Virus genome (UHGV): UHGV-0153024
Strand: one strand, 5' to 3'
DNA length: 38,923 bases
DNA from: a virus
The notes below the pieces were generated by a model, which was not told where the DNA came from, did not search any database, and saw nothing but the letters and a program-made list of their open reading frames with translations. How positions within the stretch are numbered: the stretch's first letter is position 1; each line of letters starts with the position of its first letter. Below are positions 632 through 28,871 of this stretch, in pieces. The position numbers were made by a program, and so were the translations under genes.

Positions 632-708
632 AATGGAAACAATAAGTTAGAGTAAAAACAATAAGTTGGGTTGGTGGTCAGTGGTGGTTATTACGGGGTA
701 ATGCCAAC

Positions 709-730
709 CGCTGCCGCCACTTTGTCGCCA
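709..730. repeat. attL core (CGCTGCCGCCACTTTGTCGCCA)
   Basis: Matches 36019-36040 (CGCTGCCGCCATTTTGTCGCCA) at 21 of 22 positions; flanks diverge on both sides; positioned exactly at the expected prophage boundaries. Confidence 0.6.
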
Positions 731-736
731 CTTGTT

Positions 737-1006
737 TTACCTTAGACGCCATGGGCCCCTATCTTCAATCTGTTCGACTAACCCCTCCTCTTCTAGTTCA
801 CGCAATAGTGCAACAACCCAATATTGTTGGTTCGAACTTGTTGCTTTCCGTTTTTCTCCCCAATCGAGGCCGCTTAGACGAAATACCTCAGCTTGCTTAA
901 CGCCGTTGCCGTTTTTTTGGGCATCTGGGTGAGTTTTAAGTACGGATAAAGCCAATTCTTTGGCTCTGTTGCGCAATTCCGCTCCCTGATGCTGAAACTT
1001 ATTCAT
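737..1006 (-). CDS. Hypothetical small protein (89 aa) between attL and int
   Basis: Track ORF; GGAG 8 nt upstream of the ATG on the minus strand; function not recognised. Confidence 0.5.
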   Translation of the reverse strand: MNKFQHQGAELRNRAKELALSVLKTHPDAQKNGNGVKQAEVFRLSGLDWGEKRKATSSNQQYWVVALLRELEEEGLVEQIEDRGPWRLR

Positions 1007-2101: not shown

Positions 2102-2121
2102 AGCCCTCATGTCAGAGGGCT
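2102..2121 (-). terminator. GC-rich hairpin (AGCCCTC-loop-GAGGGCT) with short T-run, ending 5 nt before the int start codon
   Basis: 7-bp stem; on the minus strand it is followed by TTTTT and then the int ATG (2096-2094). A second hairpin (2152-2177, ATGTATGG/CCATACAT) and the palindrome TGACCAGTGGTCA (2139-2151) lie between it and the stop of the upstream membrane-protein gene. Confidence 0.45.
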
Positions 2122-2176
2122 AAATTAAACTGTATGTTTGACCAGTGGTCAATGTATGGTTTGTGAAATCCATACA

Positions 2177-2707
2177 TTACCTTAATTTATCAAGCTCTCG
2201 TTTATTTCTTTTATCATGTATATCATTAAGAAATAATATATTACTAGCAATGATACTAAATAACGCTATTATTTGTAGATATACTAATAACGCTGTGATA
2301 AAAAATCCAAACTTGCAGAACACGTGCTTATGCAAGGAAATGAAATCCAGATTTGAAAATATAGGTTTCGTTAAATTTATTATAACAATAGAAAATATTA
2401 CAATAGCTGAAATTATAATGGTTTTCACTATCAGCGTAATTCGCTCAATATCTTTTTCTGTTTCCTTATGATAGTTTATACTAGTTATTGTTGATGGCTT
2501 TACAATTGAACTTACAGCTGCAGGGTAAATATATGCAAGCCAAATACCTGCAATAGTGAAGATCATTGCAGAAATGTTTTGCAAGGTAGATAAAATATCT
2601 TTTATATCTGCATACGTATATTTGTCTCCGAACAAATAAGCAATAGCTATAATTGTTAGGAGAAAACATATGTGCAAAATTTTAGGTTTTATAATCATAC
2701 TATGCAC
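2177..2707 (-). CDS. Small integral membrane protein (176 aa, about four predicted TM helices); candidate RexB-like effector
   Basis: Four hydrophobic segments (ILHICFLLTIIAIAYLF; AMIFTIAGIWLAYIYPAAV; ITLIVKTIIISAIVIFSIVIINL; FGFFITALLVYLQIIALFSIIASNILFL); very AT-rich; start overlaps the upstream 400-aa gene by 8 nt. Confidence 0.6.
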   Translation of the reverse strand: MHSMIIKPKILHICFLLTIIAIAYLFGDKYTYADIKDILSTLQNISAMIFTIAGIWLAYIYPAAVSSIVKPSTITSINYHKETEKDIERITLIVKTIIISAIVIFSIVIINLTKPIFSNLDFISLHKHVFCKFGFFITALLVYLQIIALFSIIASNILFLNDIHDKRNKRELDKLR

Positions 2708-3902
2708 CTATTTTATGAATCTGCACTGCTGTATCATTATCAGCTTCTGGTTGTTCTATTATATCTTCATTTTTAAAACAATTCACCAAATCATTTCTAT
2801 GAGCTTTTACCACACTCATTAAATATGAAGAAGAGTAATGTTTGTTTCTGTTAGAAAGGTCAACGTGAATTTCATGGCGATAAACATATTCATCTAACCA
2901 AGTAGTTGAACCATTTTTCCCATTTATTTTGAATCCGATGCGTGCGTGATCATTCCCTACATTCTCATTGTTGTTTTCTGTATCTTCTGAAATAGGATTG
3001 TGGTTTTCTATATATTCATCGATGAGTTTAGTGAACTCTTCAGGCGTAGGCGTTCCTTCGACTAATAATTCAACGCGATGTTTTTTTGATAAAATAGGAG
3101 AGCTTCTTGAGAAAACATCTCCAACTGCATCAAATAACTTCTGCCATTTTTCCCGTGTATCAGGTATGTTTGTTTCTATTACGTCATGGTAAACAATGTG
3201 AGTGATTTTTTTACACAGTTCTTCTATGTTTGCTCCACTCGTGATCATCCTTGTTTGTTTAGTCTGTACTTTAAAAACTAAACTTTCATCATCACCTTGA
3301 GAAAAAAGAACACGTTTGTAATGAACGTCTTCAGGTGAGTCATTACGAGGACGAGTCATATCTATGACTTTTTTATTAGGATGCTCCATCCTAAAGTCAA
3401 CGTATGCTTTAATATAATGACAGAAAAGATCTGTATCCGTATTAGAACTTGGGAATCGTATGGATGCAATTTTGTTATATTCTGGAATTACCCAATAGTA
3501 GCAAGGTACGCCCCAGATATATTTACCGCCACCTTGAGTATCAGAGGCGGATACAACATTATCTGAAGTGCCGTCAATCTTACTTTCAGCATCTATACCT
3601 TGAATATTTCCAGAGTTATCACCAAGCGTTTTCCAGATAACAAATAGATAATCTCCTGTCGTACTGTCATATGAAATATTTTTACAGTATGCTTTTGTTC
3701 TTCTATTATTATCCTTTCCCCATGGAACAGATTGTTCAACTGTTCTTGAACAGATCCAGCTATGTAAGTTACACAGAACATGGGATAAGTTCTTTTCGAC
3801 TAATTCCGGCGATTTGCCTTGTCGTATTTTATAAAGGCCAAACATTTCTAAATCAAAAAATGTTATAATGCCGCGTTCAGTTTTAAAGTTGGTTTTACTC
3901 AT
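2700..3902 (-). CDS. Hypothetical protein (400 aa), first gene of the repressor-linked cargo operon
   Basis: Long AT-rich ORF directly downstream of, and co-oriented with, the CI-like repressor; purine-rich RBS (GAAGAGAAG) upstream of the ATG; no recognisable catalytic motif by eye. Confidence 0.65.
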   Translation of the reverse strand: MSKTNFKTERGIITFFDLEMFGLYKIRQGKSPELVEKNLSHVLCNLHSWICSRTVEQSVPWGKDNNRRTKAYCKNISYDSTTGDYLFVIWKTLGDNSGNIQGIDAESKIDGTSDNVVSASDTQGGGKYIWGVPCYYWVIPEYNKIASIRFPSSNTDTDLFCHYIKAYVDFRMEHPNKKVIDMTRPRNDSPEDVHYKRVLFSQGDDESLVFKVQTKQTRMITSGANIEELCKKITHIVYHDVIETNIPDTREKWQKLFDAVGDVFSRSSPILSKKHRVELLVEGTPTPEEFTKLIDEYIENHNPISEDTENNNENVGNDHARIGFKINGKNGSTTWLDEYVYRHEIHVDLSNRNKHYSSSYLMSVVKAHRNDLVNCFKNEDIIEQPEADNDTAVQIHKIGA

Positions 3903-3982: not shown

Positions 3983-4864
3983 TTAATTCGAAATGATTGT
4001 GCTTCTTATGCATGCAACTACCTCGATATCAGAAAATGCACATTCAAAGTAAGTTTCTTTACTTCTGATATTTATCATACCTTTAGGTAGCCTAGTAATT
4101 TGTCTGACGGAATAGGTTCCATCAATATTAATTAACCAGTATCCATCTAATACATCAGAAAATTTCTGATCACAGATGTATGCCACTAAACCATCCTGAA
4201 CGACAATTGGTGCTGAAAGATTAGCGGGTAAAAATGACGAATCGAAAATATATGAGCCACTCTCAACCATTTTGCCTGCATTGAGATGAAATTTAGGCAG
4301 TTCTTTTACCGATGTTGTGAGAGCATTGTGCTCGCTGCCTTGTCCAGTGGCTAGCCATAAAAGAGAATTTCCTGTTTCCAACGAACATTTTATGATCCAA
4401 TCAGCCGGGAATGTGTCTCGCAAATATCTATTTGCCATAGTGCTTTTAGATACATTCAGATGGTCGGCAAGTTCTTGTCTTGTTTTAAAGCCATACGCTT
4501 TCATTAGCCTGTCTATTGCATCACGTCCGCCTGAGTCAAAATTCAGATCGTTCCCAATTGGGGACTTCAGGGTGGTGGCTTGGGAAACGTGCTGAACCTT
4601 TGATGCAGTTGCCTTTGACATGACCGGAGCCTCAGTACTCTGAGGGAATGGTACGCCTTTTCCGAATGAGAGCCACTCGATAGATGCACCCGTTTCAATT
4701 GCACACTGAATTACCCAGTCAGCAGGAAATACGTCACGCATCCAGCGCGTGCCCATAGTGCTTGCAGATACGTTGAACTGTTCGCACAGAGCTTGCCTTG
4801 TCTTGAATCCATACGCTTCAAGCATGCGCGTTATGACTGCTTGTCCTCCGTTTTTGAAATTCAT
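3983..4864 (-). CDS. CI-like immunity repressor with tandem-duplicated N-terminal DNA-binding domain
   Basis: 293 aa; two similar ~60-aa segments (MLEAYGFKTRQALCEQFNVSASTMGTRWMRDVFPADWVIQCAIETGASIEWL and LMKAYGFKTRQELADHLNVSKSTMANRYLRDTFPADWIIKCSLETGNSLLWL) resembling the phage 186 CI-type HTH; divergent from the Apl/Cox-like gene. Confidence 0.75.
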   Translation of the reverse strand: MNFKNGGQAVITRMLEAYGFKTRQALCEQFNVSASTMGTRWMRDVFPADWVIQCAIETGASIEWLSFGKGVPFPQSTEAPVMSKATASKVQHVSQATTLKSPIGNDLNFDSGGRDAIDRLMKAYGFKTRQELADHLNVSKSTMANRYLRDTFPADWIIKCSLETGNSLLWLATGQGSEHNALTTSVKELPKFHLNAGKMVESGSYIFDSSFLPANLSAPIVVQDGLVAYICDQKFSDVLDGYWLINIDGTYSVRQITRLPKGMINIRSKETYFECAFSDIEVVACIRSTIISN

Positions 4865-5243: not shown

Positions 5244-5753
5244 ATGTTTGATTACCAAGTTTCCAAACATCCACATTTTGATGAAGCCTGTCGAGTATTC
5301 GCACTGCGCCACAACCTGGTGCAACTGGCAGAACGTGCAGGCATGAATGTGCAGATTCTGCGGAACAAGCTGAACCCAGCTCAACCTCATTTATTAACCG
5401 CACCAGATATCTGGCTACTTACCGATCTGACTGAAGATTCAACGCTGGTAGACGGTTTTCTGGCACAGATTCATTGTCTGCCATGTGTACCGATTAATGA
5501 GGTGGCAAAAGAGAAACTGCCACATTACGTCATGAGTGCAACCGCAGAGATCGGGCGTGTTGCTGCAGGTGCGGTATCTGGCGATGTAAAAACCAGTGCA
5601 GGCCGTCGCGAAGCTATCAGCAGCATTAACTCTGTAACACGACTGATGGCGTTGGCCGCTGTTTCATTGCAGGCCCGTTTACAGGCTAACCCTGCGATGG
5701 CGAGTGCAGTTGATACCGTGACTGGCCTCGGTGCTTCATTTGGTTTGCTGTGA
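5244..5753 (+). CDS. cII: Phage regulatory protein CII (186 CII-like)
   Basis: 169 aa, the same length as phage 186 CII, and strongly reminiscent of it from memory ([11 protein letters not shown]...[25 protein letters not shown]). Confidence 0.7.
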
Positions 5754-7343: not shown

Positions 7344-8197
7344 GCACCATCCTGAAATGGGCGGGTAATAAAACCGCCATTATGTCCGAACTGAAAAAAT
7401 ACCTTCCTGCTGGCCCGCGACTGGTTGAACCTTTCGCGGGTTCTTGTGCTGTGATGATGGCGACGGATTACCCCAGCTATCTGGTTGCGGATATTAATCC
7501 TGATTTAATCAACCTCTATAAAAAGATTGCCGCTGATTGCGAAGCGTTTATATCTCGTGCCAGAGTTTTATTTGAGGAAGCAAACAGTGAGCTGGCTTAT
7601 TACAACATAAGACAGGAGTTTAATTACTCAACTGAAATTACTGATTTCATGAAGGCGATATATTTCCTGTATCTCAATCGTCACGGTTACCGTGGTTTAT
7701 GTCGCTATAACAAGAGCGGGCATTTCAACATTCCCTACGGTAATTATAAAAATCCGTATTTCCCTGAAAAAGAAATTCGCGCATTTGCAGAGAAAGCCCC
7801 GCGGGCAACGTTTATCTGCGCCAGCTTTGATGAAACGCTGGCGATGTTGAAGGCGGGGGATGTGGTGTATTGCGATCCGCCTTATGACGGTACGTTTTCC
7901 GGCTATCACACTGATGGTTTCACTGAAGATGACCAGTATCACCTGGCATCCGTTCTTGAACATCGATCATCTGAAGGTCATCCGGTCATTGTTTCTAACA
8001 GTGACACATCCCTGATTCGTTCGCTGTATCGCAATTTCACTCACCACTACATCAAGGCAAAACGCAGCATCGGCGTGTCGGCTGGCGAGAGTAAATCTGC
8101 AACAGAAATCATTGCTGTTTCCGGGGCGCGCTGCTGGATGGGATTTGATCCTTCGCGTGGCGTGGATAGTTCTGCTGTGTACGAGGTGCGTGTATGA
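7340..8197 (+). CDS. DNA adenine methyltransferase (Dam-like, N6-adenine)
   Basis: SAM-binding motif (EPFAGSCAV) and catalytic DPPY motif (VYCDPPYDG); start [11 protein letters not shown]. Confidence 0.85.
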
Positions 8198-10608
8198 GTC
8201 ATGCCGATATGAGCGACTCTAGCGGCTTTAACGAGGCCGCTGCAGCATTTTCATGGAACGGCCCGAAAAAGGCCATAAACCCTTATCTGGACCCGGCGGA
8301 AGTTGCGCCGGTTTCTGCGCTTTCAAACCTGATCACTCTGTATGCTGCCGATAACGAGCAGGAACAGCTGCGCCGCGAGGAATTGAGTGAACAGGTCTGG
8401 GAGCGTTATTTCTTTAATGAATCCCGTGATCCTGTCCAGCGCGAAATGGAGCAGGATAAGCTCATTAGTCGGGCAAAGCTGGCGCATGAGCAGCAGCGTT
8501 TTAACCCGGACATGGTCATTCTGGCGGACGTCAGCGCCCAGCCCACCCACATCAGCAAGCCGCTGATGCAACGTATCGAATACTTCAGCAGCCTGGGGAG
8601 GCCAAAGGCTTATTCCCGCTATTTGCGTGAGACGATTAAGCCATGTCTGGAGCGACTGGATTGTGTACGCGACAGTCAGCTATCTACTTCTTTCCGTTTT
8701 ATGGCAAGCCATCAAGGGCTGGAGGGCCTGCTGATCCTGCCTGAAATGAGTCAGGATCAGGTGAAACGCCTGTCTACTCTTGTCGCTGCGCATATGAGTA
8801 TGTGTCTTGATGCCGCTTGTGGTGATTTGTACGCCACCGATGATGTTAAGCCAGAAGAAATCCGCAAGACATGGGAAAAGGTGGCAGCAGAAACCCTGCG
8901 ACTGGATGTCATCCCGCCTGCGTTTGAGCAACTCCGCCGGAAAAGAAACCGCCGTAAACCCGTGCCCTATGAACTCATTCCGGGTTCGCTGGCGCGTATG
9001 TTGTGCGCCGATTGGTGGTATCGGAAATTATGGAAGATGCGTTGCGAATGGCGGGAAGAGCAGTTGCGTGCTGTCTGCCTTGTCAGCAAAAAAGCATCTC
9101 CCTATGTCAGCTATGAAGCCGTGTTGCATAAACGTGAGCAGCGCCGTAAGTCGCTGGAGTTTTTCCGTTCTCATGAACTGGTGAACGAAGACGGCGACAC
9201 GCTGGACATGGAGGATGTGGTAAACGCCAGCAGCAGCAACCCTGCGCATCGCCGCAATGAGATGATGGCCTGTGTTAAAGGTCTGGAGCTTATCGCGGAA
9301 ATGCGCGGTGACTGCGCCGTTTTCTACACCATCACCTGTCCGTCACGTTTCCATTCCACGCTAAATAACGGCAGGCCCAACCCGACCTGGACAAATGCGA
9401 CGGTAAGACAAAGCAGCGATTATCTGGTCGGTATGTTTGCTGCATTTCGTAAGGCGATGCACAAAGCCGGGTTGCGCTGGTATGGCGTGCGGGTGGCTGA
9501 GCCGCATCACGACGGCACAGTTCACTGGCACCTGTTGTGTTTCATGCGCAAAAAAGACCGCCGCGCCATTACTGCATTGTTGCGTAAGTTTGCTATCCGT
9601 GAAGACCGCGAGGAGCTGGGCAATAACACGGGGCCGCGCTTTAAGTCTGAGCTGATTAACCCGCGCAAAGGAACGCCGACAAGCTACATAGCGAAATACA
9701 TCAGTAAGAACATTGACGGGCGTGGTCTGGCTGGCGAGATCAGCAAGGAAACGGGTAAATCTCTGCGTGATAACGCTGAATACGTGAACGCCTGGGCGTC
9801 TTTGCATCGTGTTCAGCAATTCCGCTTCTTTGGCATTCCGGGGCGTCAGGCTTACCGTGAACTGCGATTGCTGGCTGGTCAGGCGTCAAGGCAACAGGGG
9901 GACAAAAAAGCAGGTGCGCCGGTACTGGATAACCCGCGCCTTGATGCCATCTTGGCTGCTGCTGATGCTGGTTGTTTTGCCACCTACATCATGAAGCAGG
10001 GCGGCGTACTGGTTCCCCGTAAATATCACCTCATCAGAACCGCTTATGAAATCAACGAAGAGCCGACCGCCTATGGCGATCACGGCATTCGTATTTATGG
10101 CATCTGGTCACCCATTGCAGAGGGCAAGATCTGCACTCATGCAGTGAAGTGGAAAATGGTTCGTAAAGCCGTTGACGTTCAGGAGGCGGCAGCCGACCAG
10201 GGCGCTTGCGCCCCTTGGACTCGTGGCAATAACTGTCCCCTTGCTGAAAATTTGAACCAACAGGAGAAAGATAAATCAGCTGATGGGGACCCCAGAACGG
10301 ACATTACCAGCATGGATGACAAGGAGTTGCACGATTACCTGCACAGTATGAACAAAAAAGAGCGCCGGGAACTGGCTGCAAGGTTACGCCTGGTGAAACC
10401 GAAACGGCGTAAAGACTACAAACAGCGAATTACAGACCATCAGCGACTGCAGCTCGTCTATGAGCTGAAGTCCAGAGGATTTGATGGTAGCGAGAAAGAG
10501 GTCGATTTACTCCTTCGCGGCGGCAGTATTCCGTCAGGAGCAGGCTTGCGTATCTTCTATCGGAACCAGTGTTTGCGGGAAGATGATAAGTGGCGGAACC
10601 TGTATTAA
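8194..10608 (+). CDS. A: Replication initiation protein A (rolling-circle endonuclease, P2 gpA-like)
   Basis: 804 aa; HUH-type motif ([12 protein letters not shown]); position after the early region as in P2. Confidence 0.9.
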
Positions 10609-10700
10609 TTACGCGGATTAACAATTCGTGCTCTTAATAATACCAGGCATATCAGGCTGATGAACGTAAAAAAACGTTTTACATCAGTAAGATTATTATA

Positions 10701-10720
10701 TACTGTAAATATAAACAGTG
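10701..10720. promoter_or_regulatory. LexA (SOS) box TACTGTAAATATAAACAGTG
   Basis: Fits the CTGT-N8-ACAG consensus (CTGT 10703-10706, ACAG 10715-10718); about 45 nt upstream of the small ORF that precedes the DinI-like gene. Confidence 0.6.
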
Positions 10721-10761
10721 GTTATACATACAGCATTTCTTGTGGTGTCATAGGAGGAAAG

Positions 10762-10950
10762 ATGCAGGACTATTTTTTGGAGTCTTTGAAGCTCCAGCGC
10801 ATTGATTTTTTTCTTAAGCTTGTAGCGGCTAGTGAGTGTAGTGATGAAGAGAAGGGGCTGGCTCTGCAGTGGGTTTCTGAACTAACAGATGAACTCATGG
10901 CAAAAATCAGAACCCACGAATACAACCGCTCAATGGATGTCATCAGCTGA
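10762..10950 (+). CDS. Small SOS-regulated protein (62 aa), candidate Tum-like antirepressor
   Basis: Strong RBS (AGGAGG) 6 nt before the ATG; immediately downstream of the LexA box; context resembles the 186 tum operon. Confidence 0.5.
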   Translation: MQDYFLESLKLQRIDFFLKLVAASECSDEEKGLALQWVSELTDELMAKIRTHEYNRSMDVIS

Positions 10951-10960
10951 GGTGACTTTT

Positions 10961-11194
10961 ATGCGCATTGAAATAATGATCGATAAAGAGCAGAAGATTA
11001 GCCAGTCTACCCTGGACGCCCTTGAATCCGAGCTTTACCGCAATCTGTGCCCCCTGTATCCCAAAACGGTAATTCGCATTCGCAAAGGTAGCTCTAACGG
11101 TGTGGAACTAACCGGACTGCAACTGGACGAAGAAAGGAAGCAAGTGATGAAAATTATGCAGAAGGTGTGGGAAGACGACAGCTGGCTGCATTAA
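10961..11194 (+). CDS. DinI-family protein
   Basis: 77 aa, MRIEIMIDKEQ...ELYRNLCPLYP...KIMQKVWEDDSWL, resembling DinI (MRIEVTIAK...ETWESADDWF) from memory; RBS GAGGTGA. Confidence 0.7.
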   Translation: MRIEIMIDKEQKISQSTLDALESELYRNLCPLYPKTVIRIRKGSSNGVELTGLQLDEERKQVMKIMQKVWEDDSWLH

Positions 11195-11481
11195 GAAACG
11201 TTGCCCCCAAGAGGATTCATTCTGATGGGGGACTATTTTGGGCAACGAGTGAAACGAGGCGTTAGGTGGACGGCCATTTTGATAAGTGATCGTCCGCTTT
11301 TTGTTCTGAGTTCAAGCGATGGATTTAACACACTGGTTGAAGCAGAAGTATCTAAGTTCAATTTATATTATTTGAAGGGCACTGGTCTGATGTAGTACGA
11401 TTTTTGCCGGAGATGGCATGTTCTATATTGATCTCATCCATATAATGATTGGTATTATTAGCTTAGTTTAAAGAGGATTGA

Positions 11482-13059
11482 ATGGATATCAACTATGTTG
11501 TTTCAAAAATGGGGTTCGTAGATGATCTTATTAATGCAGGTTCATTTGATTCTGCCTATAAAAATGTAAAGGATATTCTTAACGGTATCGATGAGATAAA
11601 TACAATCAAAGAAAATAGAATAATTATATTATCTAATTTGGCCGGAAATCTTATTGATATCGGAAATTTTAGTAATGTAAAAAATATAGCGGAGGAAGGC
11701 TTAAATATCTTTATAAACAATAAAAATGAATTTCTGACTATAATGAAAGAATCTTTATATTACTATAACTTGGCAAATGGAATGAGCGCAGTTCTTGATT
11801 TTAATCCTAATGACAATGCAGATATTGATAGTTTCATTAAGCTGAATGATGTAAAAAATAATTACTGGAAAGCGTTTAAACTTTCACAAGAAGATGGATG
11901 GGTGCCCCCTGATTTAATAGTTAATCTAGCTAATGTATTAAAAAAACAATATCGTATATCTGAATCAATGGATTATTATGAACAAGCAATATCTATTGAT
12001 AACTCAATTCCTCAGGCGTGGGTAAACAGATCTGAGGCATTAGAATTGCTTAATGAATTATCTACAACATATACATATAAAATGATTAAAGAAGTTATTC
12101 GAGGTTATGAGTGTGCAATAAAGTCAGGGAAATGTTTTCCTTCATGGAAGATTGCTCTTCAAAGAAAAATAAAGTACAACGAAAGTATATTGAGTGAATC
12201 ATGTGTATATGGCATAGAGGATATAAGTACAGATGAAAGGCTCACGCAGGAGGAGTATGATACTTTATCAAACTACCAGAGGTTTTGTATAGATAATAAT
12301 CTAATGTTGTCTGATCATTCGCTATATTGCAATTGTTATGCGTCATCTAAAGATAATATAACTATTGCGACCACCGAGGAAGGTGTGTTTGGTGATTTTA
12401 TAGTGCCAATGGAAATGGTGTTAAATAGACTTAAAGCTGAGTATTCCTTAGCACGAAAAATGTTTTTTGAATATAAGGTTGATAGTGAGTTTTTTGATGA
12501 GGATTCGGAGGTATGTTATTCTGAATTGTATAATGGAGAAATATTGTATGAAAATGTTGAGAAGTTAAGGGTTGCATTTAGAGCTTGCTTTGGTATCTTG
12601 GATAAAATAGCAGTTGCTCTGTGTCAATTATTTGATTTAAAACCAGATAGAGGACATATATACTTTCATAACTTCTGGCGGATTAGTGATGAAAAAAGAA
12701 AGCTTAAAATAAACAAAATAAATAATAAAGGATTGCTGGGTTTGTTTAGTATTGCTATGGATTTGAATGATAAAAATGGTGAGCTTGCTTTTTTTAAAGA
12801 ATGGAGGAATGATTTAGAACATAAACTGTTAGTTATTCACGAGAAAGACATGTTAGTTGATTTATATAATTCTTATGGATTTTTTGATGAGATGAGGTTT
12901 ATTGAGAAAGAAAAGTTTGAGAAACAGCTCTTACAACTCATGAAAATTGTGAGATCAGCCGTTATTCTTTTTGTGTTTACCATACGTATAGAGGGGAAAA
13001 AAAGTATTCCTAAAGATATGTTGACCATTAAAAATACCATCGAGAGAAAAGTATTGTAG
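11482..13059 (+). CDS. Orphan 525-aa protein with N-terminal TPR-like repeats and C-terminal HEPN-like Rx4H motif; candidate anti-phage defence gene
   Basis: AT-rich island in the A-cos hotspot; TATAAT at 11441-11446; RBS AGAGGA 5 nt before the ATG; helical-repeat N-terminus (YYEQAISIDNSIPQAWVNRSEALELL); motif W-R-N-D-L-E-H at codons 441-447 (nt 12802-12822); own terminator. Confidence 0.8.
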   Translation: MDINYVVSKMGFVDDLINAGSFDSAYKNVKDILNGIDEINTIKENRIIILSNLAGNLIDIGNFSNVKNIAEEGLNIFINNKNEFLTIMKESLYYYNLANGMSAVLDFNPNDNADIDSFIKLNDVKNNYWKAFKLSQEDGWVPPDLIVNLANVLKKQYRISESMDYYEQAISIDNSIPQAWVNRSEALELLNELSTTYTYKMIKEVIRGYECAIKSGKCFPSWKIALQRKIKYNESILSESCVYGIEDISTDERLTQEEYDTLSNYQRFCIDNNLMLSDHSLYCNCYASSKDNITIATTEEGVFGDFIVPMEMVLNRLKAEYSLARKMFFEYKVDSEFFDEDSEVCYSELYNGEILYENVEKLRVAFRACFGILDKIAVALCQLFDLKPDRGHIYFHNFWRISDEKRKLKINKINNKGLLGLFSIAMDLNDKNGELAFFKEWRNDLEHKLLVIHEKDMLVDLYNSYGFFDEMRFIEKEKFEKQLLQLMKIVRSAVILFVFTIRIEGKKSIPKDMLTIKNTIERKVL

Positions 13060-24818: not shown

Positions 24819-25876
24819 GCACAAAATTTTATACCCTGCTGACGGATATTGGCGCGGCGAAACTTGCCAGCGCCCCCGCGCTCGGTGTGCCGCTAAAAAT
24901 TACCCATATGGCGGTGGGCGATGGCGGTGGAGTATTGCCAACGCCGGACGCAAAGCAGACGGCACTGGTAAATGAGAAACGCCGGGCTGCGCTGAATATG
25001 CTTTATATCGACCCGCAGAACAGCAGCCAGATTATTGCCGAACAGGTGATCCCTGAAAACGAGGGCGGTTGGTGGATACGTGAAGTGGGCTTGTTTGATG
25101 AGTCCGGGGCATTGATTGCCGTGGGCAACTGCCCGGAAAGCTATAAGCCGCAACTGGCTGAAGGTAGCGGGCGCACTCAGACCGTGCGCATGGTGCTGAT
25201 TACCAGCAGCACGGACAATATCACCCTGAAAATCGACCCTGCTGTAGTGCTGGCAACCCGCAAGTATGTGGATGACAAGGCACTGGAGCTGAAGGTTTAC
25301 GCGGATGATCAGATGGCAAAACATCTTGCCGCACCGGACCCGCATTCACAGTACGCGCCAAAAGCCAGCCCGACATTTACCGGAACCCCCAAAGCGCCAA
25401 CGCCAGCGGCGGGGAATAATACCACGCAGGTTGCGACCACTGCGTTTGTACAGGCGGCACTGACGGCCCTTATTAATGGTGCGCCAGCCACGCTGGACAC
25501 GCTGAAAGAAATAGCCGCAGCCATTAACAATGATCCGAATTTCAGTACCACCATTAACAATGCGCTGGCACTAAAAGCACCGTTGTCGAGTCCGGCACTC
25601 ACCGGAACGCCAACAGCCCCCACGGCGGCGCAGTCGGTCAACAATACACAGATTGCCACTACGGCTTTTGTGAAATCGGCGATTGCAGGAATGGTGGGTT
25701 CTGCACCTGCTGCACTGGATACACTGAACGAACTGGCGGCGGCACTGGGGAATGATCCGAACTTTGCCACGACAATGCTTAATGCGCTGGCAGGTAAACA
25801 ACCGCTGGACAATACGCTTACCAATTTGAGTGGAAAGGATGTAGCTGGTCTTCTCACATACCTTGCTTTAAGATGA
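24815..25876 (+). CDS. H: Tail fibre protein H, N-terminal (constant) part only, 353 aa
   Basis: Strong resemblance to the first ~350 aa of P2 H (AAKLA, MAVGDGGG, ESYKP.LAEGSGR.QT.RMV, DTLNELAAALGNDPNFATTM.NALAGKQP) but terminates after LTYLALR; P2 H is about 670 aa. Confidence 0.8.
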   Translation: MSTKFYTLLTDIGAAKLASAPALGVPLKITHMAVGDGGGVLPTPDAKQTALVNEKRRAALNMLYIDPQNSSQIIAEQVIPENEGGWWIREVGLFDESGALIAVGNCPESYKPQLAEGSGRTQTVRMVLITSSTDNITLKIDPAVVLATRKYVDDKALELKVYADDQMAKHLAAPDPHSQYAPKASPTFTGTPKAPTPAAGNNTTQVATTAFVQAALTALINGAPATLDTLKEIAAAINNDPNFSTTINNALALKAPLSSPALTGTPTAPTAAQSVNNTQIATTAFVKSAIAGMVGSAPAALDTLNELAAALGNDPNFATTMLNALAGKQPLDNTLTNLSGKDVAGLLTYLALR

Positions 25877-25965
25877 GAGTAGTAAACCCCTGTCCCGACG
25901 CCATGATACTATCGACTCATGACTCCTGAGTGTGTACCATTAACACAAAAAAATTGAGGTACATA

Positions 25966-27048
25966 ATGAAAAAAGTATTGATAGTTAGCTTGGTGGGCAT
26001 CGGAGATCACTTATTATCACGAGTATTCATGAAATCACTCCGCGATGATGAAAAATATAAGCACGCTAAATTCACCTTGCTTGGCAACACTGCATTCAAA
26101 GATTTTTCTCTCAAGTTTGATATGAATATATTTAATCATTTCATTTGGGTTGATTGTAATAAGGTTACTCCTTATGTGCAAACCAAAGAGAGCACATATA
26201 CTAAGATTAAAAATAAAGCCATCAGGTTTTACATCAGAAATTTAATTAAGCACTCAAATTTCGATGAGATTATAGTTCCAGATTGGTGGGGTGCGTCAAC
26301 TACTTTGCGTGTTACTCCATTTATCTCTAGTGTGAGGGATAGAGCCATCATCAATGGTATGAATATACCTGACCATCAAAGGGAGTTTTTTGGCTATTCC
26401 ACAAAGCCGGATATTGATTTTTCAAAGCATGTCCTGGATATGAATAAAGAGTTTTTCTCTGAGATTATACCATTTCCTAAATTCGAAGTTGAAATTCCAC
26501 TAAAAAATAAAAATAAAGACAGTGGCAAGATTGATATTTGCATTTCACTGGGAGCCTCTGCGCCTTTTAAAAAATACCCTGTATTACAATTAGCAAATGT
26601 AATAAACAGCATATCATCTTCATACAATGCCAATTTTAAAATCATTGGCTCCAATGATGAAATTTCAGATTACAATGTTCTTATTGAGCATATCGATAAC
26701 AAGGATATTGTAGCAGGTTTTGTTGGAAGGACTACATTATCTGAGTCGTGCGATATTGTTCTTTCATCTGAACTTTTGATTGCAAACGACACAGGCATGT
26801 TCCATGTTGGTGCTCTGGCAGGGATTAAAACTGTTTGTATTTCGAATGGTACTGGTTTGCATGCATTTGTGCCATACCCTGAGGAATTTTCGAACTGTAT
26901 TACGGTTTTCCCACCAGAGATACAAAACAAGGTAGGCACAAAAGATTTTATAAATGCACATGGCTGGTCTGGCTCAGCAATTCCGATGTCGAATATATCA
27001 CCAGACGATGTTCTTGCGGCTTGTTATAAATTGCTAAATAAAAAATAG
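25966..27048 (+). CDS. Glycosyltransferase family 9 (heptosyltransferase-like)
   Basis: GT9-type motifs: N-terminal KVLIVSLVGIGDHLL (cf. WaaC ILIVKTSSMGDVLH), central GASAPFKKYP, C-terminal ELLIANDTGMFHVGALAGIKTV (cf. VSVDTGLSHLTAALDRP); AT-rich; RBS GAGGT 5 nt before the ATG. Confidence 0.7.
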   Translation: MKKVLIVSLVGIGDHLLSRVFMKSLRDDEKYKHAKFTLLGNTAFKDFSLKFDMNIFNHFIWVDCNKVTPYVQTKESTYTKIKNKAIRFYIRNLIKHSNFDEIIVPDWWGASTTLRVTPFISSVRDRAIINGMNIPDHQREFFGYSTKPDIDFSKHVLDMNKEFFSEIIPFPKFEVEIPLKNKNKDSGKIDICISLGASAPFKKYPVLQLANVINSISSSYNANFKIIGSNDEISDYNVLIEHIDNKDIVAGFVGRTTLSESCDIVLSSELLIANDTGMFHVGALAGIKTVCISNGTGLHAFVPYPEEFSNCITVFPPEIQNKVGTKDFINAHGWSGSAIPMSNISPDDVLAACYKLLNKK

Positions 27049-27058
27049 ATGAAGTAAT

Positions 27059-27454
27059 TCAAGCTGGCTTTTCCGGCCAGCTAATCTCTGCATTAGTGTT
27101 AGCGTCAATCCTGCTCAGCAATACCCGGTATTGCTTCCACAATGGCAGCGCTACGGTTTCTGCATCTGTCGCCATACTCAAATCAACAGCATCCTGTAAA
27201 ACGCTAATCTGTTGTGTCGCCTCACTCATCAGTGCGTTTTTTGTAGCCAGATTATTGGCTATTTTCTGCTGTTTTGCTGCCTCAAGTTCTTTATTAGTTG
27301 GCGGTGGCGCACTAAAAACATCGTTATCGTAATGCCAGCCGATACCAACACCATCGGTAGAGAGAATGGCACTTGCTGATTCAGGCCACTCTGACTCGCC
27401 ATCCCAGATAACAATATTTTCTACGATACCATTTTTGATAATTGCATAGTTCAT
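27059..27454 (-). CDS. Tail fibre assembly protein (Tfa-like chaperone)
   Basis: C-terminus LPLWKQYRVLLSRIDANTNAEISWPEKPA matches the conserved Tfa C-terminal motif (cf. lambda Tfa ...[22 protein letters not shown]...). Confidence 0.7.
   Translation of the reverse strand: MNYAIIKNGIVENIVIWDGESEWPESASAILSTDGVGIGWHYDNDVFSAPPPTNKELEAAKQQKIANNLATKNALMSEATQQISVLQDAVDLSMATDAETVALPLWKQYRVLLSRIDANTNAEISWPEKPA
27062..27082. terminator. Hairpin (AGCTGGC-loop-GCCAGCT) between the convergent GT9 and Tfa genes
   Basis: 7-bp stem with loop TTTTCCG, 14 nt after the GT9 stop and abutting the Tfa stop; candidate bidirectional terminator. Confidence 0.4.
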
Positions 27455-28135
27455 TTACGCATACTCCAAAATAATAATCACGCCAGCATTGCCCGGGTTG
27501 CCGTTGACATTCTGCGCCCCACCACTGGTTGCAGCGCCATTACCACCAGCACCATACCCACCAGGGCCAGAAATAAAGCTGCCGCCGCCAAGACCGGAAC
27601 CTACAGTCCCTCCGACTGCTGTTGGGGTTGCCATCACACCGGGTAGCCCGGCGTACCCGTTGCACAAAAGGGCACCCACGGTCGAAGTGCCACCCTGACC
27701 GCCCATGCCACATGACGCAGAGGAACCTGACGCGGTGCAGCCGTTGCCTGGCTGGCCTCCACCTGCTGAGAGATAAGAGCCAAAAGTCGTCGTGCCGCCC
27801 TGTGTACCATTGGTTATCGTCGACGCAATACCGCCATTACCACCCGCACCAATCGTGACAAGCACGGTTGATATCGCAGACAGGTTAAAGAGACCGCGTG
27901 CCATTCCACCGCCACCACCACCGCCACCCGCTGCGTTATAGTTTCCTGTGGAAGTTGCCCAGCCGCCGCCCCCACCGCCCCCAATAGCGATGACATCCGC
28001 GAACATTGCTCCGGGAGTTTTGGTGTAAGTGCCAGACGTCTTGATTATCTGCATGCCAATCAGACGACCGACTGCGCCGTTATTTACTAAACCAACGTTT
28101 ATGAAAATGCAGAGATAACGGCTAACTGGCATCAT
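27455..28135 (-). CDS. Glycine-rich tail fibre distal (receptor-binding) segment, inverted relative to H
   Basis: 226 aa with long poly-Gly/Gly-rich repeats; directly upstream of the co-oriented Tfa; adjacent to the DNA invertase, as stfE-tfaE-pinE in e14 and the Mu G segment. Confidence 0.65.
   Translation of the reverse strand: MMPVSRYLCIFINVGLVNNGAVGRLIGMQIIKTSGTYTKTPGAMFADVIAIGGGGGGGWATSTGNYNAAGGGGGGGGMARGLFNLSAISTVLVTIGAGGNGGIASTITNGTQGGTTTFGSYLSAGGGQPGNGCTASGSSASCGMGGQGGTSTVGALLCNGYAGLPGVMATPTAVGGTVGSGLGGGSFISGPGGYGAGGNGAATSGGAQNVNGNPGNAGVIIILEYA
28080..28107. other. Candidate Hin/Gin-type recombination (crossover) site
   Basis: TTATTTACTAAACCAACGTTTATGAAAA has the AAACC-NN-xGTTT core and flanks resembling hix/gix sites; lies 50 nt upstream of the invertase gene, inside the 5' end of the inverted fibre ORF. 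Confidence 0.35.
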
Positions 28136-28156
28136 CTCCGGTTTTTATTCAGGGGG

Positions 28157-28729
28157 ATGATCATGCTTATTGGCTATGTACGCGTGTCAACAAATGACCA
28201 GAACACCGATTTGCAACGCAATGCACTGAACTGTGCGGGATGTGAGCGGATTTTTGAGGATAAAATCAGTGGCACCAAGTCCGACAGACCGGGGCTGAAA
28301 AAGCTGCTCAGGACACTATCGGCAGGAGACACGCTGGTTGTCTGGAAGCTGGACAGACTGGGGCGCAGTATGCGGCATCTTGTTACGCTGATAGAAGAGA
28401 TGCGCCAGCGTGGCGTGAATTTCCGAAGCCTGACTGACAGTATTGATACCAGCACCCCAATGGGCCGTTTCTTTTTTCATGTCATGGGTGCCCTGGCTGA
28501 AATGGAACGCGAACTGATAGTTGAACGTACCAGGGCGGGGCTGGCTGCAGCTCGTGCTAAAGGCAGAGTAGGTGGACGCCGTCCTAAGTTGACCAGCGAA
28601 CAGTGGGCACAGATTGGGCGTTTACTCGAGGCCGGAGAATCAAGACAGCGTATTGCACTGATTTTTGATGTAGGCGTTTCTACCATTTATCGAAAATTTC
28701 CGGCAAATAAGAACAATAAATCTCCCTGA
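28157..28729 (+). CDS. Serine DNA invertase (Hin/Gin/Pin/Cin family)
   Basis: 190 aa; N-terminal catalytic motif MLIGYVRVSTNDQNTDLQ (active-site Ser), conserved core, C-terminal HTH (VSTIYRKF). Confidence 0.9.
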   Translation: MIMLIGYVRVSTNDQNTDLQRNALNCAGCERIFEDKISGTKSDRPGLKKLLRTLSAGDTLVVWKLDRLGRSMRHLVTLIEEMRQRGVNFRSLTDSIDTSTPMGRFFFHVMGALAEMERELIVERTRAGLAAARAKGRVGGRRPKLTSEQWAQIGRLLEAGESRQRIALIFDVGVSTIYRKFPANKNNKSP

Positions 28730-28776
28730 ATCAGCTTTATTTTGATTATCCCTGAAAGCAGACAAATACCGTCATT

Positions 28777-28796
28777 TTGTGTGAATAACGGTACAA
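28777..28796. promoter_or_regulatory. Late-promoter activator dyad upstream of FI (TTGTGTGAATAACGGTACAA)
   Basis: TGT 28778-28780, 12 nt, ACA 28793-28795; about 85 nt upstream of the FI start; near-identical arms to the P/O site. Confidence 0.45.
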
Positions 28797-28871
28797 CTGC
28801 GCTTAGCTGTTTGTCAGGCACAATCACTTCAACATAGGGCGAAGCCTAATCCAATCAGGAGGTTCGCCACT

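Follow-up and report, generated by a model that had tools for sequence, protein, structure and literature searches.

A probable LexA-controlled operon for a Tum-type antirepressor and a DinI-like protein in a P2-family prophage of Escherichia coli

The region that follows replication gene A in the viral genome UHGV-0153024 is very probably an SOS operon of a 186/Fels-2-type, P2-family prophage of Escherichia coli, in which LexA represses two adjacent genes for the antirepressor TumA and the DinI-like protein TumB. The whole stretch of DNA that was analysed, 38,923 nucleotides in length, is called the window in this article, and its relevant features are collected in Table 1. In the lysogen, LexA would occupy an operator lying over the −10 element and the start site of a promoter that resembles p95 of phage 186, and tumA-tumB would thereby be silent. 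This operator would consist of box 1, probably together with the weak box 2 that overlaps it, as in the promoters of colicin genes. Upon DNA damage, RecA would become active, LexA would cleave itself, and tumA-tumB would be transcribed. TumA would then bind the 186-family repressor CI, which is predicted to possess no autocleavage domain of its own, and block its binding to the CI operator so that the early lytic promoter is released. TumB is considered as an accessory whose probable role is to modulate RecA and the SOS signal, and not to act on CI. The module region is 96–98% identical to the split tum locus of the phages Fels-2 and DuoHS, near-identical loci whose function has been demonstrated genetically, and thus the biology of the locus is already known from these phages. 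A previous sequence-only reading of this DNA named elements that all hold, but it missed that the locus is a characterised one, that the operator is double, and that the CI of the window is unlike those of the tested phages.

Table 1. Features of the tum module and of related loci in the window. HI, heterology index, on an approximate scale.
Feature	Position	Strand	Evidence or remark
LexA-like box upstream of int, CACTGGTCAAACATACAGTT (minus-strand reading); tentative second SOS node	2128–2147	.	HI 7.7, second best in the window
cI, 186-family immunity repressor, presumed target of TumA	3983–4864	−	Tandem duplicated HTH domain
cII, 186 CP76 family	5244–5753	+	PF06892, E 6e-41; 97.6% identical to DuoHS CII
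Replication gene A, 804 aa; 5' neighbour of the module	8194–10608	+	PF05840, E 1.8e-127
−35-like hexamer TTTACA of the putative tum promoter	10678–10683	+	Invariant in 7 diverged relatives; counterpart of TTCACA in 186 p95
LexA box 1, TACTGTAAATATAAACAGTG	10701–10720	.	HI 4.46, 20-mer match, conservation
−10-like hexamer TACTGT	10701–10706	+	First six bases of LexA box 1, 17 nt past the −35
LexA box 2 (weak, candidate), CAGTGGTTATACATACAGCA	10716–10735	.	HI 10.1; 5-bp overlap with box 1
Shine-Dalgarno sequence AGGAGG of tumA	10752–10757	+	4 nt 5' of ATG 10762; invariant in the alignment
tumA, 62-aa acidic two-helix protein, predicted CI antirepressor	10762–10950	+	Near-identity to DuoHS and Fels-2 genes; profiles
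tumB, 77-aa DinI-family protein	10961–11194	+	PF06183, 79.4 bits (cut-off 24.2), E 2.5e-22

A 700-bp region is 96–97% identical to the corresponding DNA of many Peduoviridae, including Fels-2 and phages of Klebsiella and E. coli, and two relatives have already been characterised at this locus. The first is DuoHS of E. coli HS. Like DuoHS, the prophage of the window resides at the rcdA/ybjL site; its Int is 100% identical, its box 1 is identical, and its TumA and TumB are identical at 61 of 62 and 76 of 77 residues to ECHS_RS04495 and ECHS_RS04500, respectively. The structural and replication genes are 89–100% identical between the two, and all essential DuoHS genes are found at full length in the window within this same range; since they are all intact, the prophage looks competent. 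Apart from CI, which is discussed below, the differences lie in the distal tail fibre and in the cargo: PDC-M18 is located between int and cI of the window, and HEPN_LA2681-TPR follows tumB at the place where DuoHS has two hypothetical genes. ECHS_RS04495 is the 62-aa gene directly 3' of gene A in DuoHS, and in-frame deletion of this gene alone (“tum”) abolishes both the lysis and the virion formation that are induced by mitomycin C; lexA(Ind-), encoding a non-cleavable LexA, abolishes them as well (PMC12055606). The expectation that the prophage is probably SOS-inducible like 186, which had been put forward from the sequence, is therefore supported by a nearly identical module that is required for the SOS induction of DuoHS.

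The second relative is Fels-2, from the host genus Salmonella. Its module shares approximately 96% DNA identity and an identical box 1 with the window, and its two open reading frames are STM2728 (annotated as hypothetical; 61/62 identical to TumA) and STM2726.1 (DinI family, “similar to TumB of PsP3”; 76/77 identical to TumB). In Fels-2, as in PsP3, a stop codon divides tum into two genes, of which the upstream one has the antirepressor activity in PsP3 (Lemire et al., 2011, PMC3121763). A LexA-dependent lethal phenotype has been attributed to the Fels-2 prophage (as cited in PMC3121763 and PMC12626290), and PMC12626290 summarises the work of Bunny, Liu and Roth (2002) as showing that Fels-2 was missing from all lexA-null isolates that survived. 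Unlike the window, Fels-2 possesses a different Int type whose gene abuts cI, and there is no LexA box 5' of its int gene.

The repressor on which TumA would act departs from those of the tested phages. CI consists of two PF07022 (Phage_CI_repr) domains and one PF16452 (Phage_CI_C) domain, and no peptidase S24 (LexA-like) domain was found in it. Autocleavage of the lambda type was rejected on these grounds, namely that CI is devoid of the S24 domain and that its C-terminus is Phage_CI_C. Both the 186-like CII and the long CI that had been recognized in the sequence are borne out by PF06892 and by this domain composition; similarly, an antirepressor route instead of repressor cleavage, as suggested at that time, is in agreement with the missing S24 domain, with the homology of TumA to the N-terminus of Tum and with the effect of the tum deletion in DuoHS. 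The identity of the window CI is 49% to the CI of DuoHS, 46% to the CI of Fels-2 (210 aa, single HTH), and 30% to the CI of 186, and its closest relative is a 198-aa type with 73% identity. The extra N-terminal HTH that makes up the duplication in the window is absent from the CIs of DuoHS and Fels-2, the two tested phages that carry this TumA. Such differences favour a reading in which the module is intact and LexA-regulated, while TumA fails on a CI whose HTH is duplicated and which belongs to another immunity type; in that case SOS induction of the prophage would be poor or absent, or the action of TumA would be confined to co-resident relatives, in trans. We surveyed the pairing of TumA and CI in 80 IMG/VR loci that encode a 100% identical 62-aa TumA. 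The exact CI of the window was not found among these 80 loci, which again speaks for such a failure, yet the CIs that accompany the identical TumA fall into about 18 clusters at 80% identity, mostly 35–65% identical between clusters, and these comprise single-HTH proteins of 152–214 aa together with eight double-HTH types of 307–318 aa. DuoHS and Fels-2 both depend on LexA/Tum although their CI types share just 38% identity, and PsP3 likewise combines a double-HTH CI with a split tum. Among the domains of the CIs, the HTH domains are the better conserved, with 52–78% identity to those of the window versus 29–80% for the C-terminal domains. TumA itself is 100% identical in E. coli and Klebsiella records and 61/62 identical in Salmonella Fels-2. 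An unchanged TumA next to CIs of such diversity suggests a generalist binding to a surface that the CIs have in common, which supports its action on the CI of the window, and we regard the failure of TumA on this CI as unlikely. Given the divergence from the DuoHS CI and the duplicated HTH, we infer the activity of TumA on the window CI by extrapolation from DuoHS and Fels-2.

TumA is an acidic protein with a net charge of about −5 by residue count, and its AlphaFold2 model is a two-helix hairpin with pLDDT of 89. It is named “hypothetical protein” in RefSeq, has no family in Pfam and NCBIfam, and has no relative in the PDB by sequence. Its gene lies directly after replication gene A, with a LexA box on its 5' side and with a 186-family CI lacking an autocleavage domain in the same genome. 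Because neither 186 Tum nor PsP3 TumA was matched by TumA in direct BLASTP, the homology has to be argued by PHROG profiles, by hhalign, and by a bridging protein of the ESSI-2 type. Residues 1–70 of 186 Tum match phrog_698, the family of the window TumA, at 5.9e-6 with a colinear alignment at 6–44, and the window TumA matches phrog_1993, the family of 186 and PsP3, at 2e-3; a third family, phrog_8554, is matched by both 186 Tum(1–70) and the window TumA (2.4e-8 and 3.4e-12). Alignment by hhalign places residues 5–43 of TumA on residues 5–43 of 186 Tum with an E-value of 3e-4 at a probability of only 39%. The TumA of Cronobacter ESSI-2 forms the bridge, with an E-value of 8e-8 to the window TumA and 1e-6 to 186 Tum; BLASTP of the ESSI2_ev015 homologue against 186 Tum was negative. 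Profiles and this transitive link together indicate remote homology between TumA and the N-terminal half of 186 Tum, the half with the antirepressor function.

TumB begins at ATG 10961, eleven bases past the end of tumA at 10950, and thus a DinI-family gene does follow the small open reading frame as originally described. Along its full length the protein can be aligned to E. coli DinI (PDB 1GHH) with an E-value of 8e-6; it is 41% identical to residues 71–146 of 186 Tum, being the counterpart of the C-terminal, DinI-like half of that protein, and it scores 41.3 bits against NCBIfam NF007893, the E. coli DinI equivalog, below the cut-off of 111. By these models TumB is a member of the DinI family and not a DinI equivalog. 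No convincing intrinsic terminator was found past tumB, where the fold of 11185–11260 has a z value of −0.44. A bona fide DinI-family protein next to a hypothetical protein that has neither a Pfam nor an NCBIfam family, and a 186 record stating that truncated DinI-like Tum “modulates SOS induction”, are what one would expect of a moron, a host-directed SOS modulator in which the DinI-like protein tunes RecA, the small open reading frame is unrelated, and induction takes another route. That the cassette is of this kind is very improbable, as DuoHS is no longer induced once only the 62-aa gene is deleted in frame, and as TumA shares homology with that half of Tum which acts as the antirepressor. 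Furthermore, phages of the ESSI-2 type keep the LexA box and tumA and have no DinI gene, which fits TumA as the effector, and a CI without a self-cleavage domain requires another trigger.

The tumA-tumB operon can also be compared with other known systems. In phage 186, the LexA-controlled p95-tum is located after gene A, the equivalent position as noted in the sequence-only reading, and as in the window a LexA box covers a TACTGT −10, the C-terminal part of the product is DinI-like, and the antirepressor works on a non-cleavable 186-family CI. Work on 186 p95-tum is reportedly due to Lamont in 1989, Brumby in 1996 and Shearwin in 1998. On the other hand, 186 has both halves fused in one 146-aa Tum, from which internal starts also give the DinI-like piece; its box is single and stronger (HI 1.9), its N-terminal half is only remotely similar, and orf97 is found downstream. 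PsP3 resembles the window in its split tumA/tumB after gene A behind a LexA box and in a CI with two HTH domains, and its tumA is annotated as “similar to 5' end of 186 tum; UV induction of prophage”, followed by tumB as the next gene. Its TumA, however, belongs to phrog_1993 and has no pairwise BLAST similarity to the TumA of the window, and its LexA box is single and lies only 20 nt from the start codon. A more distant parallel is provided by the dinI-antirepressor operons of Gifsy-1/2/3, encoding GfoA and GftA (Lemire et al., 2011, PMC3121763). These also consist of a LexA-controlled DinI homologue and a small antirepressor that inactivates a non-cleavable repressor, and antirepressors of the Gifsy prophages show cross-talk in trans between prophages; unlike in the window, dinI comes first in the reversed gene order, the antirepressors and repressors come from unrelated families, and these phages belong to the lambdoid group. 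P2 itself has no tum and a different repressor, the 99-aa C, and its right-end region yielded no LexA-like box (best HI 16.3), in line with the earlier statement that the prophage differs from P2 in this respect.

Box 1 was evaluated both by consensus matching and by a heterology-index (HI) matrix, for which we assembled 25 E. coli SOS boxes ourselves instead of taking the published matrix, so that its scale is approximate. The CTGT-N8-ACAG core is exact at 10703–10718. This bare core occurs once in the window against 0.48 expected occurrences, and 38 of 100 shuffled windows contain at least one copy; thus the minimal motif alone carries no significance. The full 20-mer is significant: with three mismatches to TACTGTATATATATACAGTA, it matches the consensus at 17 of 20 positions, which was reached by none of 100 shuffles. 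Its HI of 4.46 makes it the top LexA-like site of the window, the best value in 500 shuffled windows being 6.88, and on this approximate scale it falls inside the range of 2.3–11.9 (median 7.2) covered by the 25 boxes. The excellent operator match that had been pointed out at this place is therefore correct to the base. The sequence of box 1 is unchanged in Fels-2, in DuoHS, and in 66 of the 80 IMG/VR loci. In all ten relatives examined (Fels-2, DuoHS, 186, PsP3, SopEPhi, two Klebsiella phages, Yersinia MLG42, ESSI2_ev015 and Cronobacter ESSI-2), a LexA-like box with HI of 0.9–6.0 is positioned 18–76 nt 5' of the start codon, while the flanks diverge. An alignment of seven diverged relatives shows a series of invariant blocks 5' of tumA, namely TTTACA, TATACTGTA 15 nt further on, (A/C)CAGTGG, TACAGT, and the Shine-Dalgarno sequence, and the positions between the blocks differ. 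Although the core alone is expected at the above frequency and the region is AT-rich, it is extremely unlikely that box 1 is a fortuitous intergenic palindrome left unbound by LexA, considering the 20-mer match and an HI beyond all shuffles, its retention at the same position in ten diverged relatives, its near-identity to known colicin operators, and the block that lexA(Ind-) imposes on the induction of DuoHS, which carries the same box 1 (PMC12055606). LexA would accordingly be expected to bind the copy in the window.

The promoter of the operon is placed by analogy with the annotation of 186 p95. The arrangement TTTACA-17-TACTGT overlaps box 1, and the layout is the same as that of the annotated 186 p95 (TTCACA, 18-nt spacer, TACTGT), including the overlap of the −10 with the LexA box; a p95-like promoter at this position would be the source of the transcript. 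A generic sigma-70 promoter scan of the window did not call the tum promoter, because its −10 fits the consensus at just three of six positions, as it does in 186. The strong ribosome binding site of the small open reading frame, together with the box just 5' of it, was correctly identified from the sequence. An alternative 96-aa form of the tumA frame starting at 10660 was rejected, as the operator would fall within its coding region and relatives differ in this stretch by indels that are not multiples of three.

Immediately after box 1, the window contains a candidate second box. The two boxes, starting at 10701 and 10716, are offset by 15 bp and share a common CAGTG at their junction. Box 2 has a G where LexA boxes nearly always show C. 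Its arms, CAGTGG and TACAGT, are invariant across the seven diverged phages and its spacer differs. By contrast, only one box is present in 186, PsP3 and the ESSI-2 group, where the next-best HI is above 21. When the 39-nt operator in its Fels-2 version was compared with plasmids, 1181 of them matched at 85–95% identity, and where inspected, the matches lie approximately 43 nt 5' of the genes for colicin E1 (cea), a colicin E3-like protein and pesticin (pst). In alignment, the promoters of cea, the colicin E3-like gene and pst have the same 15-bp offset between box 1 and box 2 with the common CAGTG, and box 2 of Fels-2 is identical to box 2 of colE1, from which box 2 of the window differs at three positions. 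Double overlapping SOS boxes of colicin promoters were reported by Lu and Chak (1996), as cited in PMC2994835, and in the account given in that paper, two LexA dimers on double SOS boxes bring about tight repression of a gene that is lethal when expressed (PMC2994835). The operator of the window is thus probably a colicin-type double overlapping SOS box, in which box 2 may take part in LexA binding. The position relative to the promoter is different: in colicin promoters the boxes lie 3' of a separate −10, whereas in the window the interval is 11 nt shorter, so that box 1 sits on the −10. By inference from the colicin case, the tum promoter of the Felsduovirus type would use the colicin solution to obtain tight repression and late firing. 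A literal text search of the literature for the box-2 sequence found no paper.

The second best LexA-like site of the window is located 31 nt 5' of int, within the 17-nt spacer of a promoter-like pair, TTGACC at 2152–2147 and TTTAAT at 2129–2124. On the minus strand, TTTAAT is followed by a hairpin and T-run at 2121–2102 and then by the int ATG at 2096. In every fetched locus of this Int type, defined by 95–100% N-terminal identity and amounting to about 45 loci, a box is present at int with HI of 2.9–7.7; the arms of these boxes are conserved, the spacers differ, and the DNA farther 5' is unrelated. The box is absent in loci with Int types of Fels-2, 186 or PsP3. Among the fetched loci the window copy is the weakest version (HI 7.7 versus 4.4 in DuoHS), and in DuoHS the corresponding site around the box, TTGACA-17-AAAAAT, was called by the promoter scan. 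In about 1100 E. coli genomes, the mutual homology stops just beyond this element. Our search of the literature for a LexA-controlled prophage int promoter, or for an account of this int-upstream element, found no paper. The site may represent an SOS-controlled int promoter.

Taken as a pair, a generalist TumA and a prophage wired to SOS at two nodes, the double operator of tumAB and the int promoter, form a proposal that we hold to be possible but somewhat less than probable. If TumA is a generalist, a single Felsduovirus-like prophage could act in trans to induce relatives of different immunity in the same cell. If there are two nodes, the double operator on tumAB would mean tight and late firing, and the LexA-controlled int promoter would supply integrase for excision. 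The practical gain is one of annotation, since the antirepressor carries the RefSeq label “hypothetical protein” and is covered by no model in Pfam or NCBIfam. The same module is found in 1125 of 5426 complete E. coli genomes, about a fifth, and the prediction is that these prophages and that of the window would be induced by DNA-damaging agents. Mitomycin C and trimethoprim were used in the Phollow study (PMC12055606). DNA-damaging agents include several antibiotics, and the prediction thus bears on phage-mediated gene transfer and on host lysis. The double operator, the association of one TumA with many CIs, and the SOS box at int are modest additions that would refine the view of induction timing and cross-talk in the P2 family.

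The 62-aa predicted CI antirepressor TumA (10762-10950) is 100% identical across 80 IMG/VR loci (L006-L085) as well as in Klebsiella and E. coli phages, and the protein of the Salmonella phage Fels-2 matches it at 61 of 62 residues. The CI repressors linked to this identical TumA in the same 80 loci fall into about 18 clusters that are only 35–65% identical, and thus the antirepressor stays invariant while the repressor diversifies. The two HTH copies of the window CI (residues about 1–75 and 106–180) share 56% identity, and this duplicated architecture is found again in PsP3 CI and in eight CI types of 307–318 aa. The TumA family has no model in Pfam or NCBIfam, and RefSeq labels it as "hypothetical protein"; a few records use the name "levan regulatory protein". 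Many database entries start TumA at upstream ATGs, giving proteins of 84–106 aa (10660-10950), so that the LexA operator would fall within the ORF. Two further Peduoviridae, ESSI2_ev015 and Cronobacter ESSI-2, still have a TumA-like ORF preceded by a strong LexA box; in the latter phage this ORF carries no annotation. Neither phage has a DinI-like gene, and the genes that follow the ORF lie on the opposite strand.

Coordinates of the features (in the window unless another locus is named)
Feature	Position	Strand	Remarks
int	1065-2096	minus	
Terminator-like hairpin + T-run	2121-2102	minus	after LexA-like box, immediately before int ATG
LexA-like box	2128-2147	minus	upstream of int; HI 7.7 (approximate scale)
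PDC-M18 subunit B	2177-2707	minus	PADLOC match, E 5e-24
PDC-M18 subunit A	2700-3902	minus	PADLOC match, E 2e-36
CI repressor	3983-4864	minus	186-type HTH domain in tandem duplication, then C-terminal domain
525-aa protein gene	11482-13059	plus	downstream of tumB; low GC (27–34%)
LexA box + TumA-like ORF	ESSI2_ev015 (L090) 658-913		after gene A
LexA box + TumA-like ORF	Cronobacter ESSI-2 (L091) 661-898		after gene A

A LexA-like box is also found in front of int, within the spacer of a promoter-like TTGACC-17-TTTAAT (region 2102-2177, minus strand), and the two elements together may form an SOS-controlled int promoter. The box is kept in all fetched loci with the same Int type, with a variable spacer and a heterology index (HI) of 2.9–7.7 on an approximate scale, while the Fels-2, 186 and PsP3 int types among the fetched loci lack it. 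The counterpart of the promoter-like site in the E. coli HS prophage DuoHS reads TTGACA-17-AAAAAT. No description of such an element upstream of int was found in the literature searched. The putative promoter is bordered at its -35-like hexamer by an inverted repeat, ATGTATGG ... CCATACAT (2152-2177). Repeats of a similar kind (ATGTAT..ATACAT) occur again in related loci with otherwise unrelated upstream DNA.

Between int and cI (2177-3902), two low-GC ORFs (30–37%) without Pfam or NCBIfam match correspond to the PADLOC candidate defence system PDC-M18, whereas a 63-aa ORF is all that DuoHS carries there. The sole structural segment that diverges from DuoHS is the distal tail-fibre and tail-fibre-assembly region (25324-28800). 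Here only the first 165 aa of H match, and G, which is encoded on the opposite strand, shows 34% identity; this pattern suggests that a host-range cassette was exchanged or that the segment is invertible.

The gene downstream of tumB, the DinI-family gene, is probably defence cargo: its product combines TPR repeats with an LA2681-like HEPN domain at the C-terminus (PF18733, E 2.5e-38). The position of this gene is occupied by orf97 in 186 and by different cargo in DuoHS and Fels-2. Since no clear terminator was found between tumB and this gene, it is possible that SOS induction would extend to the HEPN/TPR cargo as well.
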